From: Stellaceae bacterium
GTDB taxonomy: Bacteria > Pseudomonadota > Alphaproteobacteria > ATCC43930 > CGMCC-115725
Assembly: GCA_035538335.1 (NCBI GenBank)
Contig: DATLKN010000025.1
Span: 42,611-106,610 of the forward strand
DNA length: 64,000 nucleotides
Direction: 5' to 3'
Below, piece by piece: positions 28,714-32,654 of the stretch. The notes beneath the pieces are model-generated. The model did no database searches. It worked only from the letters and a program-made list of their open reading frames with translations, and had not been told where the DNA came from. Numbering within the stretch: position 1 is the first letter of the stretch; each line of letters begins with the position of its first letter. The translations under genes and the position numbers were made by a program.

Positions 28714-29301
28714 CTAACCGATCGGCGCCCCGCGGGCGTCGCTTTTATGTGGCGGCCGCCCTTCGATTAGCCGCCGCGCCTTCCGGATCGCCCGCAGCCG
28801 GCGGCGCGCCCGCCGCGCGAGGCGCAAGGCCTCGGCGGGCGAAACCTCGCCGCGCGATACTGCCGCGAGGGTCCGGGTCAGCATGTCCCGCACATCCGCC
28901 GCCGTGCGCAGCGGCGGCAGATCGACTTCCGGCGGCGGCGCGCGTGGCGGCAGGAGGCGCAGCGCCAGCGGCCGGAAGAGAAAGGGCTTGCGCTCGACGA
29001 GATCAACGAGCGCCCCGGGATCGAGCCTGCCGACGACCCGCTCGATCGCCGGGCGCCGCGGATTGCGGATGCCGCGCGGCCGGCCGCGCGGGTTGCCGGA
29101 GGAGCCCTTCGCGAAGCGCCCGCGTGCGTCGCGCGCGCGAGGCGAAAAGAGATCAGGCGCAAGTAATTGAGATTCCTCGATTCCGGATCCGGGAACAGGT
29201 GAATTATCAGGCTGTATCACGGCTGCGGCGCTCTCTGATATCGGCAGACAAGGGCGGCCGGCGCCAATTGCGGCGCGGCAAATGGCATGATATATGTTCA
29301 C
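28714..29301 (-). CDS. DUF5681-motif protein (mobile-element/phage-associated family); start uncertain
   Basis: ARDARGRFAKGSSGNPRGRPRGIRNP matches the G-N-P-x-G-R-P-x-G signature of DUF5681. The 5' part lies in AT-shifted DNA. Confidence 0.55.
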   Translation of the reverse strand: MNIYHAICRAAIGAGRPCLPISESAAAVIQPDNSPVPGSGIEESQLLAPDLFSPRARDARGRFAKGSSGNPRGRPRGIRNPRRPAIERVVGRLDPGALVDLVERKPFLFRPLALRLLPPRAPPPEVDLPPLRTAADVRDMLTRTLAAVSRGEVSPAEALRLARRARRRLRAIRKARRLIEGRPPHKSDARGAPIG

Positions 29302-29341
29302 TATATGTTCGATTCAAGAGCGAGAAAGGCTTGGTGGTGCC

Positions 29342-30256
29342 TCAGTTTGAAATCCGAGCCGCATCAGCCTTCGGCCGGCGGGGTTTGTAGGGGCCGCGCT
29401 TCTTCGGCGGATCTTCGCGTGCATCGATCAAGGCTACGATGTCTTCCATGGACCATAACCGATCGGTCAGTTCCGCCGCCATCGCCGGCGTAACTCTGAG
29501 CGTTTTGTGGATGCGGACGAAGTTGTAAAACATGACGTGCAAGGCAACTGCGTGATAATGGTTCTCGATCTTCTTGCTGAATGCATTGGTTAGCCGAGTG
29601 AATCGGCGCATCGACATCCGCATCGTTAGATTTTTCCGTTCAACGTAGCTCGTTGAAACGTGCGCCGGATCGGGATTGCCGGTGATCTTCTCTCTCCGCG
29701 TTCCGATGCATTCTGCCGGGCTGTAGCGTCGCGAGGCTTCGACCGATGCGGGCGCGTTGCCATAGAGTTTTACGAGCATCGCGTAATCGATCTCGGAGCC
29801 AAACGCCTCCTCGACCGCTTGCAAATATGGGCGGTGCCCGTCTGTCGTAAGCTGTACCCGGTTCGCAAGCCTGCGGCGAAGATCGTCCATCATGATTAGC
29901 GCGAACTCGGCGTCCCGGCCGCCGACCATATAGCTGATCAGCAGTTTGGTCGGACCATCGAGCGCGGTCCAGGTCCAGCAATCGCCGGCTGTCGGATCGC
30001 CCGCGCGCTTGCTGGCGGAAACGTTCTTCTGCTTCGCGCCAACGAAACTCCAAACCTCATCGCATTGAATCCGCGTCGCTTTGATGTTGCGGACATGCTC
30101 ATCGTGATAGATGGCACAGGCCACTCCGGCATCGATCAGCAATTTCATGACCGTGTTCAGCGATACGTCGGCAACGCGCGAGATAGAGCGAAGGGACGAG
30201 CCTTCGCAGAGCATCGAGAGGATCTGAGCGCGTTTGGCAATAGATAGCTTGTTCAT
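29342..30256 (-). mobile_element. IS1-family DDE transposase-like gene (single ORF, no terminal inverted repeats found)
   Basis: N-terminal HTH ([33 protein letters not shown]). Blocks colinear with IS1 InsB: [51 protein letters not shown]. Confidence 0.8.
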
Positions 30257-30310
30257 ACGCGCGATTATACGCGCGTGTGGTTAAGCGTTCAAGCAACAAT
30301 TCAGTTTGAA

Positions 30311-30511
30311 TTAGCGGTCAAAACTAACGCGCAACCGCCCGTCTCGCACCTCGAAGCGAGCTTTCGATGACGACCGAATTACGTCCTGATCCGCAACCCG
30401 GTTAGGCTTATCCTGTACGCTACCAGAACGGACCTCCGTGCTTTTGCGCTGAGAAGTATCACCTTCACGCGTCGACCGAGACGTGCCGCTGCGATAGGTA
30501 TTACGGATCAT
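30311..30511 (-). CDS. Hypothetical 66-aa Ser/Arg/Thr-rich protein, third gene of the Ntn cassette
   Basis: ATG at 30511 overlaps the stop of the upstream gene by 11 nt (ATGATCCGTAA). Product MIRNTYRSGTSRSTREGDTSQRKSTEV...FEVRDGRLRVSFDR. No recognisable family, so coding status is uncertain. Confidence 0.35.
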   Translation of the reverse strand: MIRNTYRSGTSRSTREGDTSQRKSTEVRSGSVQDKPNRVADQDVIRSSSKARFEVRDGRLRVSFDR

Positions 30512-31517
30512 CGCTAAACCCCGTGTAGCGGTGTTGAAGTGGAGGCTCATTGAGAAGCTGGAATCCTTTATCCCTGGTTACAACCCCAATATGGGTACGA
30601 CCGCCGACGGTTGGCACCCCTATAGAGAAGCGCGATTTGCCTGCTTGAATCATCACAAGAAATGAGACAAAATTAATCGCGTCCTGTAATGGCAGATTGG
30701 AGTAGCTTAAGGGCACTCGGTATTGTCGCCAATTAATCGTAATAGGAGGCGGTGACGGGACTTTAAATTCTATATCTTCCGGCATTTTAGCTCCGATACG
30801 ATCTAAAATTTGATTTATCAAGTCGGTGAAATGCAATGTCAGTGTTTCAGAGTGAGACTTTAACGTTTCTGCAAATTTGTCTCGTAGATCTGATCTTGCG
30901 TCTCGGTCGTAGCCCCGAATGAAACGTTCAACCGCATCCGATTGACCTTCCCAAGCTACGCCAGTGCGCCCATTCTCAAATGCCAGCCTCGCTGAATTTT
31001 CTTGAATATTCACTCTATATATAGAGGGAAACTTGTCGTTTCGGCCAAATCCGCCCACCAAAAAAAGCGGCCCTTCCCTAAACTGTTCAGGAATGGCGGA
31101 TTCGTTATAGTGGTCTTCATATCTCGCTCGCATGAACCGCAAAAATGAGTTGCAAATTGTTTGTACTTTTACCTGTGGGGCTCTGCGCCGCTTCTGTGCT
31201 TCGCAAAACTCCTGCGCAATACTCGCGATCGGCAAATCATTTAGCTTTGCCAAACCTGCAGTTACAGCCACGACAGGAGATGGTTGCGGGGAGATTTCAA
31301 ACATTTTTGTGACGCCGCCCCAAGCATTTGTCACAACTGGCTCTATATCCTCACCAGTAAATTCAATGGTATATTTGCCCGACTCATCTGGTGTGAGAGG
31401 TTGCTTCTTCAGTTCTTGAAGCCTAATTGGATCGACGTAATACGAAACAGTGCTTGCGATACTGTCGCAGCCGATTACGAGCGCATCGCTGGTCGCGAGC
31501 GCTACATTAATCGTCAT
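30501..31517 (-). CDS. Proteasome-beta/HslV-like N-terminal nucleophile (Thr) hydrolase, divergent, orphan
   Basis: MTINVALATSDALVIGCDS places Thr at mature position 1 and Asp at 17. Later blocks follow proteasome-beta order: TKMFEIS..VVAVTAG, GPLFLVGGFGRNDKFPSIYRVN, WEGQSDAVERFIRGY, TVGGRTHIGVVTRDKGFQ. Low-GC gene. Start chosen at 31517 because the upstream extension overlaps a better ORF. Confidence 0.65.
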   Translation of the reverse strand: MTINVALATSDALVIGCDSIASTVSYYVDPIRLQELKKQPLTPDESGKYTIEFTGEDIEPVVTNAWGGVTKMFEISPQPSPVVAVTAGLAKLNDLPIASIAQEFCEAQKRRRAPQVKVQTICNSFLRFMRARYEDHYNESAIPEQFREGPLFLVGGFGRNDKFPSIYRVNIQENSARLAFENGRTGVAWEGQSDAVERFIRGYDRDARSDLRDKFAETLKSHSETLTLHFTDLINQILDRIGAKMPEDIEFKVPSPPPITINWRQYRVPLSYSNLPLQDAINFVSFLVMIQAGKSRFSIGVPTVGGRTHIGVVTRDKGFQLLNEPPLQHRYTGFSDDP

Positions 31518-31764
31518 TTCGTCTGGGATGCGACCAGCGTCTCCGCGCTGCGAGCTGGGCAATCTCAGAGCGCCGCTCAGCAGACATGGAGTTAGCCCTC
31601 GCCCGTCCCCCCTTTTGGCCGCCCAGTCGTCCCAACGCGACGGCGGCGGGATTCTTCTTTGGCTCGACTCGCAGATCTTCCTCCGCTTCGCCGGTCGCGA
31701 TATCGACGACAAGCTTTGCAAGCTGGTTCGGGTCGCGCGGGCGTTTGCTTGAGCGGCTAGGCAT
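31507..31764 (-). CDS. Small basic protein (85 aa) with a KGG-type Arg/Lys-rich C-terminus, first gene of the Ntn cassette
   Basis: MPSRSSKRPRDPNQLAKLVVDIATGEAEED...KNPAAVALGRLGGQKGGRARANSMSAERRSEIAQLAARRRW. I recognise this as a recurrent alphaproteobacterial small-protein pattern of unknown function. Its stop overlaps the Ntn start (ATGACGATTAA). Confidence 0.6.
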   Translation of the reverse strand: MPSRSSKRPRDPNQLAKLVVDIATGEAEEDLRVEPKKNPAAVALGRLGGQKGGRARANSMSAERRSEIAQLAARRRWSHPRRNDD

Positions 31765-31933
31765 GGCTCTATCGTGGTGCGTTGCGCGCACAAGTCAAGA
31801 GACAAGACGACCCACGCCGTCCGCCCGAGTCGGTTTTCGCGAGATGGCGGCATGTGGGGATTTGATCGGAAAGCGTCAAGCCCCCTCATGGCCGCTCAAT
31901 TTCAAAGTGAGGCACTACCAAAGGCTTCCGCCC

Positions 31934-31980: not shown

Positions 31981-32235
31981 ATGGCGACGCTGACCATCCG
32001 CAACGTCGAGCATGAATTGAAGGAGGAGCTGCGCGTGCGCGCCGCGCGGCATGGACGGTCGATGGAGGCCGAGTTAAGGCATATCCTGAAGGAGGCGCTC
32101 GGCGCCGGAAGAGGGCGCCCCGAACCGAACCTTGCCGAGGCGATCCGCCGGCGCTTCCTGCCACTCGGCGGCGCCGACGAGTTGGCGCCCCACCCGCCGG
32201 TGGAGACCGGCGAGCCGACGCCGTTCGAACGGTGA
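31981..32235 (+). CDS. vapB: RHH antitoxin (FitA/VapB, StbC-like)
   Basis: MATLTIRNVEHELKEELRVRAARHGRSMEAELRHILKEAL is the classic Arc/MetJ-type antitoxin N-terminus. 4-nt overlap with the PIN gene. Confidence 0.8.
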   Translation: MATLTIRNVEHELKEELRVRAARHGRSMEAELRHILKEALGAGRGRPEPNLAEAIRRRFLPLGGADELAPHPPVETGEPTPFER

Positions 32236-32654
32236 TCGTCCTCGACACCAACGTCCTTTCGGAACTGATGCGGTCAGAGCCGGACGGAGCGGTCTTCGCC
32301 TGGGTCGCGGCGCAACCGCGGACCGCGCTCTACACGACGAGCGTCAGCAAGGCGGAGATCCTCTACGGCATTGCCGCCTTGCCGGAAGGGCGGCGGCGCG
32401 CGGCGCTCGCGGCGGCGGCGGAAGCGATGTTCACCGACGATTTCGCGGGCCGGGTGCTGCCCTTCGACGAAGCGGCCGCTGTCCACTATGCCGAGATCGT
32501 CGCGGCCCGCCGCCGGGAAGGCCGGGCGATCGAAGCCTTTGACGCGCAAATCGCCGCGACGGCGCGGGTCGCCGGCGCCGATCTCGCCACCCGCGATGTC
32601 GGGGATTTCGCCGACTGCGGCCTCACCCTCGTCAACCCGTGGAAGGCGAGCTGA
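32232..32654 (+). CDS. vapC: PIN-domain toxin (FitB/VapC)
   Basis: MIVLDTNVLSELMR..., with acidic residues spaced as in a PIN domain (D5, E11?, D..., TRDVGDF). Confidence 0.9.
   Translation: MIVLDTNVLSELMRSEPDGAVFAWVAAQPRTALYTTSVSKAEILYGIAALPEGRRRAALAAAAEAMFTDDFAGRVLPFDEAAAVHYAEIVAARRREGRAIEAFDAQIAATARVAGADLATRDVGDFADCGLTLVNPWKAS

Follow-up and report, generated by a model that had tools for sequence, protein, structure and literature searches.

The orfA-orfB-orfC locus

The stretch of DNA analysed here (hereafter the window) comprises 64,000 nucleotides from a Stellaceae bacterium (contig DATLKN010000025.1, positions 42,611 to 106,610) and contains, on its minus strand, three chained open reading frames (ORFs), designated orfA, orfB and orfC, which encode proteins of 85, 338 and 66 amino acids (aa) and are carried by an element of the IS1 family of insertion sequences (IS). 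Our analysis points to orfB as the gene of a proteasome-fold N-terminal-threonine (Ntn) hydrolase and showed that orfC is its constant, overlapping companion; the functional unit is the pair orfB-orfC, not the trio.

The G+C content of the whole window is 0.681; it drops from approximately 0.68-0.72 to 0.46 in a tract at about 29200-31900, and that of orfB is 0.470. A preliminary description of this DNA had reported the collapse from counts in 60-nt intervals, and all five counts were exact when repeated (22, 27 and 31 of 60 in the cassette versus 35 and 37 of 60 in spot checks of flanking genes). The two 11-nt overlaps that it described were also present as written, namely ATGACGATTAA (31517-31507) between orfA and orfB and ATGATCCGTAA (30511-30501) between orfB and orfC, and inspection of the sequence upstream of the orfB ATG revealed no GGAG-type Shine-Dalgarno (SD) sequence.

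The product of orfB is a predicted proteasome-fold hydrolase

We then searched for relatives of the orfB product. No match was found in the Pfam (including PF00227), NCBIfam or PADLOC libraries; searches of the PDB by sequence returned chance matches only, whether the query was the orfB product alone or a profile of its family; and a scan of the three cassette proteins against PHROGs gave only weak matches to families of unknown function. Homologues were found as 321 matches in a word-indexed database, every one of them annotated as hypothetical, and as 2,050 representatives at 50% clustering in an exhaustive search, 118 of them with E<=1e-30. Distant relatives of about 280 aa from the exhaustive search, scanned against Pfam, provided no bridge to any family.

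The profile match that the preliminary description had proposed as a check was not obtained, but the fold search did match. An AlphaFold2 model of the orfB product was built on an alignment of 49 diverse homologues (44-62% identity to the query) and had a predicted local distance difference test score (pLDDT) of 86.8 and a predicted template modelling score (pTM) of 0.81. The results of our Foldseek comparison of this model with the PDB showed 623 matches with E<=1e-3, the top 50 of which were all 20S alpha/beta subunits or Anbu; the best matches had E values of about 1e-6 to 1e-5, template modelling (TM) scores of 0.52-0.69 on the target and 8-16% identity. In a viral library, the best matches were a subunit labelled 'Proteasome beta type-2' and proteins resembling HslV.

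Residues T2, D18 and K71 were invariant in 49 of the 49 homologues, which supports the Thr/Asp spacing noted in the preliminary description and singles out K71 among its candidates for the catalytic lysine. Further invariant positions of this alignment are N4, T9, C17, S19, G88, G155-G156, W189, Q192 and T303-G306. D18 is position 17 once Met1 is removed; in the model it closes the second strand and K71 directly precedes a strand, like Asp17 and Lys33 of beta subunits. An hhalign comparison with a Thermoplasma acidophilum beta sequence placed K71 on Lys33 and LVGG153-156 on LLVGG, but with a probability of 4.7%, which makes it informative for register only. Asp18 and Lys71 are thus predicted to take the roles of proteasome Asp17 and Lys33, and G88 is probably the equivalent of Gly47, as judged by eye.

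Nearly all homologues begin with Met-Thr, from an ATG, GTG or TTG start codon, and the removal of Met ahead of Thr is an established specificity of methionine aminopeptidase. The predicted nucleophile is the N-terminal Thr exposed by removal of Met1, with no propeptide. A pseudoenzyme reading was ruled out because Thr2, Asp18 and Lys71 are invariant. The near-universal Met-Thr start also indicates that the database record of the Stellaceae protein, which gives 353 aa from an upstream TTG, i.e. 15 codons more (31517-31562), is probably wrong.

The two large insertions that the preliminary description had proposed were found in the secondary structure of the model. The first, which follows the third strand and precedes the strand that bears the Lys (S3/S4, residues ~28-58), has one short helix and is otherwise coil; the second, between H3 (194-201) and H4 (277-297), consists of a helix (205-241) followed by a loop to residue 276. 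Helices are also predicted at the H1/H2 positions (97-109 and 118-136). We conclude from the model that orfB probably encodes a proteasome-fold N-terminal-threonine hydrolase with two insertions, its place in the superfamily being argued from fold and catalytic residues as it was for the families of Fuchs, Alva and Lupas (PMC8665760).

Several annotations of orfB homologues depart from the Met-Thr start. The coding sequence in phage LPPA33 is annotated 54 codons short, with loss of the catalytic Thr (L059 5001-5163), and in several database homologues the annotated N-terminus is lengthened by a spurious 40-100 aa, translated across orfA in a different frame. In one further locus (L034 6001-7028), the Ntn gene is broken by a frameshift and orfC is intact.

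orfC is an obligate and selected partner of orfB

Comparison of orfB loci was made on 37 loci fetched from one-genome-per-species contigs of Alpha-, Beta-, Gamma- and 'Delta'-proteobacteria, Chloroflexota, Acidobacteriota, Poribacteria, Binatota and others, 33 of which had a full-length orfB. An orfC-type ORF of 60-82 codons, starting within the final codons of orfB, was present in all 33. Its ATG is at position -8 from the orfB stop in 27 of them and at -1, -5 or -14 in the remainder. The same arrangement was found in 26 of 26 viral contigs from IMG/VR, with the ATG at -8 in 25, and phage LPPA33 also carries an overlapping orfC, which is unannotated there. The linkage of orfB and orfC is obligate.

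An AGGA/GGGG-type SD sequence lies 5-16 nt before the orfC ATG in 27 of the 33 genome loci, where it forms part of the Thr-Gly-Phe/Tyr codons conserved at the end of orfB. As the start of orfC is embedded in the end of orfB, translation of the two genes would be coupled and their products made at a roughly constant ratio. The preliminary description had argued for coupling at both junctions from their identical overlaps: the geometry is conserved for orfB-orfC but not for orfA-orfB, the spacing of which varies across loci from an 11-nt overlap to a 16-nt gap.

We also measured selection on orfC. The pooled ratio of nonsynonymous to synonymous differences (pN/pS, Nei-Gojobori method, 21 pairs) was 0.41 in the orfC frame versus 0.99 and 0.99 in the other two frames, and pairwise omega (nonsynonymous to synonymous rate ratio) was 0.09-0.24 where synonymous sites were unsaturated. 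These values argue that orfC is under purifying selection.

The orfC products are small and basic, with an isoelectric point mostly of 10-11.6 and 60-78% polar or disorder-promoting residues. They have in common a pattern rather than a sequence: M-x-x-N-x-x-RSG, followed some 20 residues later by [D/E]-x-RSG, and the element h-x-h-x-x-G-x-h-x-h at the C-terminus. In the AlphaFold2 model, residues 1-50 had pLDDT values of about 50-56, i.e. disordered, and residues 51-64 formed a hairpin with pLDDT values of 82-89. A profile search retrieved only 16 stand-alone small proteins, and no fusion or alternative partner was found among these relatives.

In two Halomonadaceae enzymes, residues 218-222 and 232-263 of the H3/H4 insertion are missing, and the orfC products that accompany them are the sole ones without the hairpin. 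This co-variation is suggestive of a link between the H3/H4 insertion and the orfC hairpin. A divergent viral subclade (L075-L082, enzyme N-terminus MTTNVVVAT[YF]HGVVLGCDSL) has both RSG motifs replaced (N-A-L-N-C ... A-P-x-x-N-G-Q) and the C-terminal hairpin kept, and offers natural variation useful for asking which elements of orfC matter.

The cassette is cargo of an IS1-family element

The features of the locus are listed in Table 1. Inverted repeats of 21 bp enclose the transposase gene, orfC, orfB, orfA and a leader of about 135 nt, and the ends of the element coincide with the shift in composition. The cassette is passenger cargo within an IS1-family element flanked by a perfect 8-bp duplication, and this target duplication is fresh. 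The preliminary description had rightly proposed foreign, mobile DNA; the cassette lies inside the element and not merely beside its transposase.

Table 1. Features of the IS1-family element and of the adjoining genes (window coordinates)
Feature	Position	Strand	Basis
orfC: basic, mostly disordered partner, two RSG motifs and predicted C-terminal beta-hairpin, 66 aa	30311..30511	-	comparative loci, pN/pS, AlphaFold2
orfB: predicted proteasome-fold Ntn hydrolase, 338 aa, insertions ~28-58 and ~205-276	30501..31517	-	AlphaFold2, Foldseek, invariant residues
orfA: 85-aa basic protein, KNPAAVALGRLGG-KGG-ARA...RRSEIA...RRW, IS-linked head gene	31507..31764	-	homologue census, inverted-repeat linkage
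Whole IS1-family element with three passenger ORFs, 2,587 bp, G+C 0.54 vs 0.68 for the window	29333..31919	-	inverted repeats, target duplication, transposase
Target-site duplication, copy 1, AAAGGCTT	29325..29332	.	identical 8-mer just outside both inverted repeats
Target-site duplication, copy 2, AAAGGCTT	31920..31927	.	same 8-mer
Terminal inverted repeat, transposase end, GGTGGTGCCTCAGTTTGAAAT	29333..29353	+	19/21 vs reverse complement of 31899-31919; overlaps transposase stop codon
Terminal inverted repeat, orfA end, GGTAGTGCCTCACTTTGAAAT on minus strand	31899..31919	-	19/21 partner
IS1-family transposase, 304 aa, N-terminal helix-turn-helix (HTH) and DDE_Tnp_IS1	29342..30256	-	Pfam
Candidate promoter, TTGAAC-17-TATAAT, 10/12	30264..30292	-	consensus scan; site count in region not above shuffles
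DUF5681 gene	28714..29301	-	
FitA-like antitoxin and PIN toxin genes, overlapping pair, right of the IS	31981..32654	+	E 1.7e-18 (antitoxin), E 3.2e-17 (toxin)

The transposase matched the Pfam family DDE_Tnp_IS1 above its gathering score (E 3e-7), as well as HTH_38/HTH_23. The order orfA-orfB-orfC-transposase recurs in Rhizomicrobium (L001), in a betaproteobacterium (L019) and in a Xanthobacteraceae metagenome-assembled genome (L021), with transposases that are 57-61% identical, and transposase homologues of 52-61% identity lie downstream of orfC or of other cargo in L001, L019, L021 and L052.

The best sigma-70-like match of the region, TTGAAC-17-TATAAT, is located in the 54-nt spacer between orfC and the transposase gene, 8 nt before the transposase ATG, and suggests that the transposase has a candidate promoter of its own, separate from the cargo genes. 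The hexamers TTGACT and ACGATA, which the preliminary description had proposed as a promoter of the cassette, are indeed present, 17 nt apart and 5 nt ahead of the orfA ATG, but they failed the criteria of the consensus scanner and were not called; promoter-like sites in the region were not above chance (2 observed versus 2.3 expected in shuffles), and the near-leaderless transcript that had been suggested is unsupported.

The element sits in the divergent spacer between the DUF5681 gene and fitA, which encodes the ribbon-helix-helix antitoxin of the pair to the right. Without the IS and one copy of the duplication, only about 85 bp separate the start codons of these two genes; the IS therefore landed in their shared promoter region, and its insertion may affect fitAB expression.

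Distribution and mobility of the orfB-orfC pair

Sixteen temperate Pseudomonas aeruginosa phages carry the pair over its full length, at 33% identity. In phage LPPA33 it is located between the integrase gene and convergent tail-fibre genes, i.e. in an attachment-site-adjacent moron slot, and in 19 of the 26 viral contigs it lies no more than 4 kb from the provirus end. An identical enzyme occurs in at least two flanking contexts in Pseudomonas. Transposons, HigB/MqsA and conjugation genes surround the pair in L046/L047, and a methylase/Vsr island does so in L048. The orfB-orfC pair is horizontally mobile through IS and temperate phages.

The neighbours of the pair were surveyed in 24 loci (129 neighbouring ORFs). 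No Pfam family was found more than three times (Phage_integrase three times, Resolvase twice), no third gene recurred beside the pair, and neither an AAA+ unfoldase nor an ATP-grasp or transglutaminase gene was recurrent. No HslU, Mpa/ARC, PAN or Anbu-operon gene (ATP-grasp, transglutaminase-like, alpha-E) was found in the window neighbourhood, in agreement with the preliminary description, and none recurred in the annotated contexts. On a Chloroflexota chromosome, a gene of the Pup-ligase family, which like orfB is linked to proteasome biology, was seen some 7 kb downstream of the pair (L042 16446-17023); this proximity is probably coincidental because it did not recur in other loci.

A candidate mechanism for the pair

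The reading that we prefer, tentatively and with a probability that we put a little short of even, is that of a Thr1 protease restrained by orfC as a dedicated (pseudo)substrate, the two forming a mobile conflict module. The C-terminal beta-hairpin of the orfC product would serve as its docking element, the likely site on the enzyme being the H3/H4 insertion, and the motifs of orfC (N-x-x-RSG ... [D/E]-x-RSG) would be placed in the active-site cleft by beta-augmentation, as in the connectase-MtrA complex. As substrate or pseudosubstrate, it would keep a constitutively mature protease occupied or inhibited, and its loss or consumption would free the enzyme against cellular or phage proteins, according to a toxin-antitoxin (TA) or abortive-infection (Abi) logic. 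The pair would travel as cargo of an IS1-family element here and as an integrase-adjacent moron in temperate phages elsewhere. Connectase, a proteasome homologue that likewise carries an insertion at S3/S4, offers a precedent (PMC7980362, PMC8665760). We infer on these grounds that the two proteins bind physically, that orfC acts as a (pseudo)substrate and that the pair has a function in conflict. If it is indeed a phage- and IS-borne conflict module, a proteasome-fold effector would be added to bacterial immunity and addiction biology. The broader claim, that the pair is the first proteasome-fold enzyme with a translationally coupled peptide partner and represents a new mobile, protease-based TA/Abi class without kin among named systems, in which a Thr1 protease or connectase-like transpeptidase would either be controlled by its own disordered RSG-motif protein or act on it, is possible but in our judgement rather unlikely.

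Several observations weigh against this mechanism. Our PADLOC scan of the neighbours in the 24 loci detected one Drt2 and one type III restriction-modification system, with no clear enrichment in defence genes; PADLOC v2 gave no match for orfA, orfB or orfC; and the pair is absent from the plasmids of PLSDB. In Chloroflexota and in L043-45 the pair is held in stable, ordinary chromosomal contexts, which would also fit a housekeeping role. The co-variation of insertion and hairpin represents a single evolutionary event. The RSG motif is not universal: in Pseudomonas types the first motif reads N-[AV]-G-S, and NGQ is seen in one phage clade. Finally, a type II antitoxin gene mostly precedes its toxin gene and codes for a DNA-binding domain; orfC, in contrast, follows the enzyme gene and no such domain is recognisable in its product. 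No toxin with a proteasome fold is known. The defence or addiction role suggested in the preliminary description is thus favoured circumstantially, by the moron position in phages and by carriage on an IS, but not by any clear defence-island enrichment; its statement that the trio matched no named defence system agrees with the PADLOC v2 result for the three proteins.

In a second interpretation, the protein encoded by orfC would be a true substrate or precursor, cleaved or transpeptidated at RSG by a connectase-like enzyme, perhaps through an amide-linked Thr1 intermediate, and the product would be the output of the system, either a modified peptide or a part of orfC attached to a target. The occurrence of a short motif twice within a disordered peptide, at a distance of about 20 residues, the location of the S3/S4 insertion where connectase has its substrate-specificity element, the 1:1 translational coupling of orfB and orfC and the example of connectase itself, a sequence-specific monomeric proteasome homologue, are all in keeping with it. 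However, orfC shows poor conservation in the parts that separate and follow the motifs, no gene for an acceptor, exporter or modifying function recurs downstream, the RSG motifs are degenerate in some clades, the orfB model keeps the H1/H2 helices that connectase lacks, and the substrate of connectase is not encoded beside it. We consider this interpretation unlikely, though far from negligible. If orfB does encode a specific RSG-type peptidase or ligase, it could become a biotechnological tool, as connectase did.

orfA is probably a head gene of the element

The mechanism that we prefer, a protease restrained by orfC, involves two genes, and the preliminary description had presented three as one unit. 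The results of our homologue census did not bear this out. In the same database, more than 2,567 orfA homologues (about 80 aa, 63-82% identical) were found versus 321 for orfB, a family approximately eight times larger, and most orfB-orfC loci (those of Chloroflexota, Pseudomonas, Luteibacter, Halomonadaceae and all phage copies) have no orfA. Elsewhere, orfA homologues precede genes for proteins of 154 aa and 158 aa, and a single family of alternative cargoes was rejected, these proteins being unrelated to each other. The order in L052 (4001-5965) and L053 is orfA, a 154-aa protein without matches and an IS1-like transposase; in some of L055-L058 (e.g. L058 793-1583), orfA is followed by an overlapping gene for the 158-aa protein, which gave weak ClpP-like SDH_protease/NfeD matches (E 4.5e-5, below the cut-off). 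The orfA homologues with other cargo again adjoin PIN/antitoxin pairs and IS1-like transposases.

The inverted-repeat sequence of the IS was found about 110 nt upstream of the orfA homologues in L055-L058 and L001, the distance being about 110-155 nt over several unrelated loci, and the scan of these upstream regions gave 9 matches with no more than 4 mismatches versus about 0.2 expected by our own estimate. orfA is best read as a head or accessory gene of the IS element, not as a dedicated partner of orfB. These loci, in which the head gene stays the same and the cargo is exchanged, suggest that IS1-type elements of this kind form a family, and their architecture (inverted repeat, head gene, cargo, transposase) is of interest in itself as a vehicle for accessory genes. 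The head gene of the element would then be what makes the pair look like a trio.

A three-component system, in which orfA would act with orfB and orfC as a DNA-binding regulator, like omega in omega-epsilon-zeta, or as a second substrate, was nevertheless retained as an alternative because orfA is the gene immediately ahead of orfB in nine or more loci (window, L001, L002, L004, L006, L015, L019, L021 and L043-45), some of them without a detectable transposase; it also overlaps orfB in the window, L004 and L019, and its product is very basic, one homologue being annotated as 'histone H1'. The size of the orfA family, its absence from most loci of the pair, its position ahead of at least two other unrelated genes and its association with the inverted repeat rather than with orfB all speak against a three-component system, as do the frameshifts of orfA in L006 (5358-5643) and L015 (5686-6008), where orfB and orfC are seemingly intact. 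Such a system seems to us quite improbable.

Other small elements were seen around these loci. In L006, where no transposase is present, an inverted repeat of the IS type (4 mismatches) follows orfC at about 120 nt, and this may be a decayed or non-autonomous element. Loci without orfA often have another small ORF (66-76 aa, no Pfam match) that precedes the Ntn gene by 50-250 nt and is co-oriented with it, as in L038-L041 (7548-7748, conserved over four Pseudomonas contexts), L046 (6722-6952) and L048 (6629-6856), and this ORF gave no tblastn match to orfA.

Comparison with known systems

The best structural matches of the orfB product, Anbu, HslV, BPH and 20S beta subunits, have the Thr1...Asp17 spacing in common with it, but orfB has about 110 extra residues in two insertions and no unfoldase or Anbu-operon genes. 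Eukaryotic 20S proteasomes are known to use disordered assembly factors, and a housekeeping or stress protease that forms rings like HslV, BPH or Anbu, with orfC as chaperone, cap or activator and with incidental mobile carriage, would suit the ring-forming nature of the closest folds and the stable chromosomal context in several Chloroflexota genomes and L043-45. We hold it to be very unlikely in view of the patchy spread of the pair over unrelated phyla, its carriage by IS and phages, the differing flanking contexts of the same protein in Pseudomonas and the argument that S3/S4 and H3/H4 insertions are incompatible with stacked rings (PMC8665760). Ring assembly of the orfB product is doubtful.

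The closest description is that of the 22 new proteasome-like families which Fuchs, Alva and Lupas obtained in 2021 by iterative searches, modelling and active-site conservation (PMC8665760). Among them, the PMI families ('Proteasome homolog with Multiple Insertions') have, like orfB, a stand-alone bacterial proteasome fold, a Met-Thr start without propeptide, equivalents of Thr1, Asp17 and Lys33, insertions at S3/S4 and H3/H4 (PMI-5 and PMI-6), no AAA+ partner, the label 'hypothetical protein' and a patchy distribution. PMI-5 comprised 19 sequences, from Proteobacteria only, with an unstructured S3/S4 insertion (PMC8665760), and this description fits the orfB family as of 2020; the likeness is one of description, since none of 18 orfB homologues looked up was returned as PMI-5 WP_179179973.1 or PMI-6 WP_103790100.1. 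The 2021 survey reported no genomic context or co-occurrence hinting at function and no AAA+ partner (PMC8665760), whereas orfB has an obligate overlapping partner and is carried by IS and phages. Gene callers often overlook orfC, which is probably why the survey saw no context. That catalogue gave no functional clue; orfC now supplies one for the orfB family, and an obligate, overlapping and selected partner gene turns a 'hypothetical Ntn protein' into a concrete, testable two-component hypothesis.

Connectase, the archaeal protein ligase of DUF2121, is a monomeric proteasome homologue that forms a 1:1 complex in which a short linear motif is engaged through beta-sheet augmentation (PMC7980362), and its S3/S4 site carries the substrate-specificity element (PMC8665760), an insertion that touches the substrate. 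Like orfB, it has an N-terminal nucleophile (Thr/Ser) that becomes exposed once Met is removed, an S3/S4 insertion and no unfoldase. In contrast to the orfB model, connectase is without helices H1/H2 and has a two-helix S3/S4 insertion, where orfB has one short helix; it recognises a KDPGA motif, ligates without hydrolysis, is confined to methanogens and acts on MtrA, a large enzyme subunit encoded elsewhere. The two have no sequence similarity.

Comparison with type II TA and abortive-infection modules showed that the orfB-orfC pair has, like them, a compact overlapping arrangement of an enzyme and a small, fast-evolving, disordered protein, a sporadic and horizontally transferred distribution, and locations on IS, near other TA pairs and in prophage moron slots. 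Searches of the literature on defence, TA and prophages brought up no relevant work on proteasome-like or Ntn proteins, and those on IS1 passenger genes nothing relevant either.

The IS1 family is characterised by an 8-9 bp target duplication and by terminal repeats that begin with GGT. The element of the window, comparable to a transporter IS (one that carries passenger genes), has in common with this family a DDE_Tnp_IS1 domain with an N-terminal HTH, GGT-initial terminal repeats and an 8-bp target duplication, but IS1 measures about 0.8 kb and the window element 2.6 kb, with a single-ORF transposase and three passenger ORFs upstream of it; no description of an IS1-type sub-architecture with an orfA-type head gene and cargo was found in the searchable literature. 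The preliminary description had called the enzyme an unnamed orphan: its class was already catalogued in 2021, but the orfB-orfC gene pair is not described there (PMC8665760). The new elements are the universal overlapping partner gene, the IS1-family vehicle with a head gene and interchangeable cargo, and the moron location in temperate phages.

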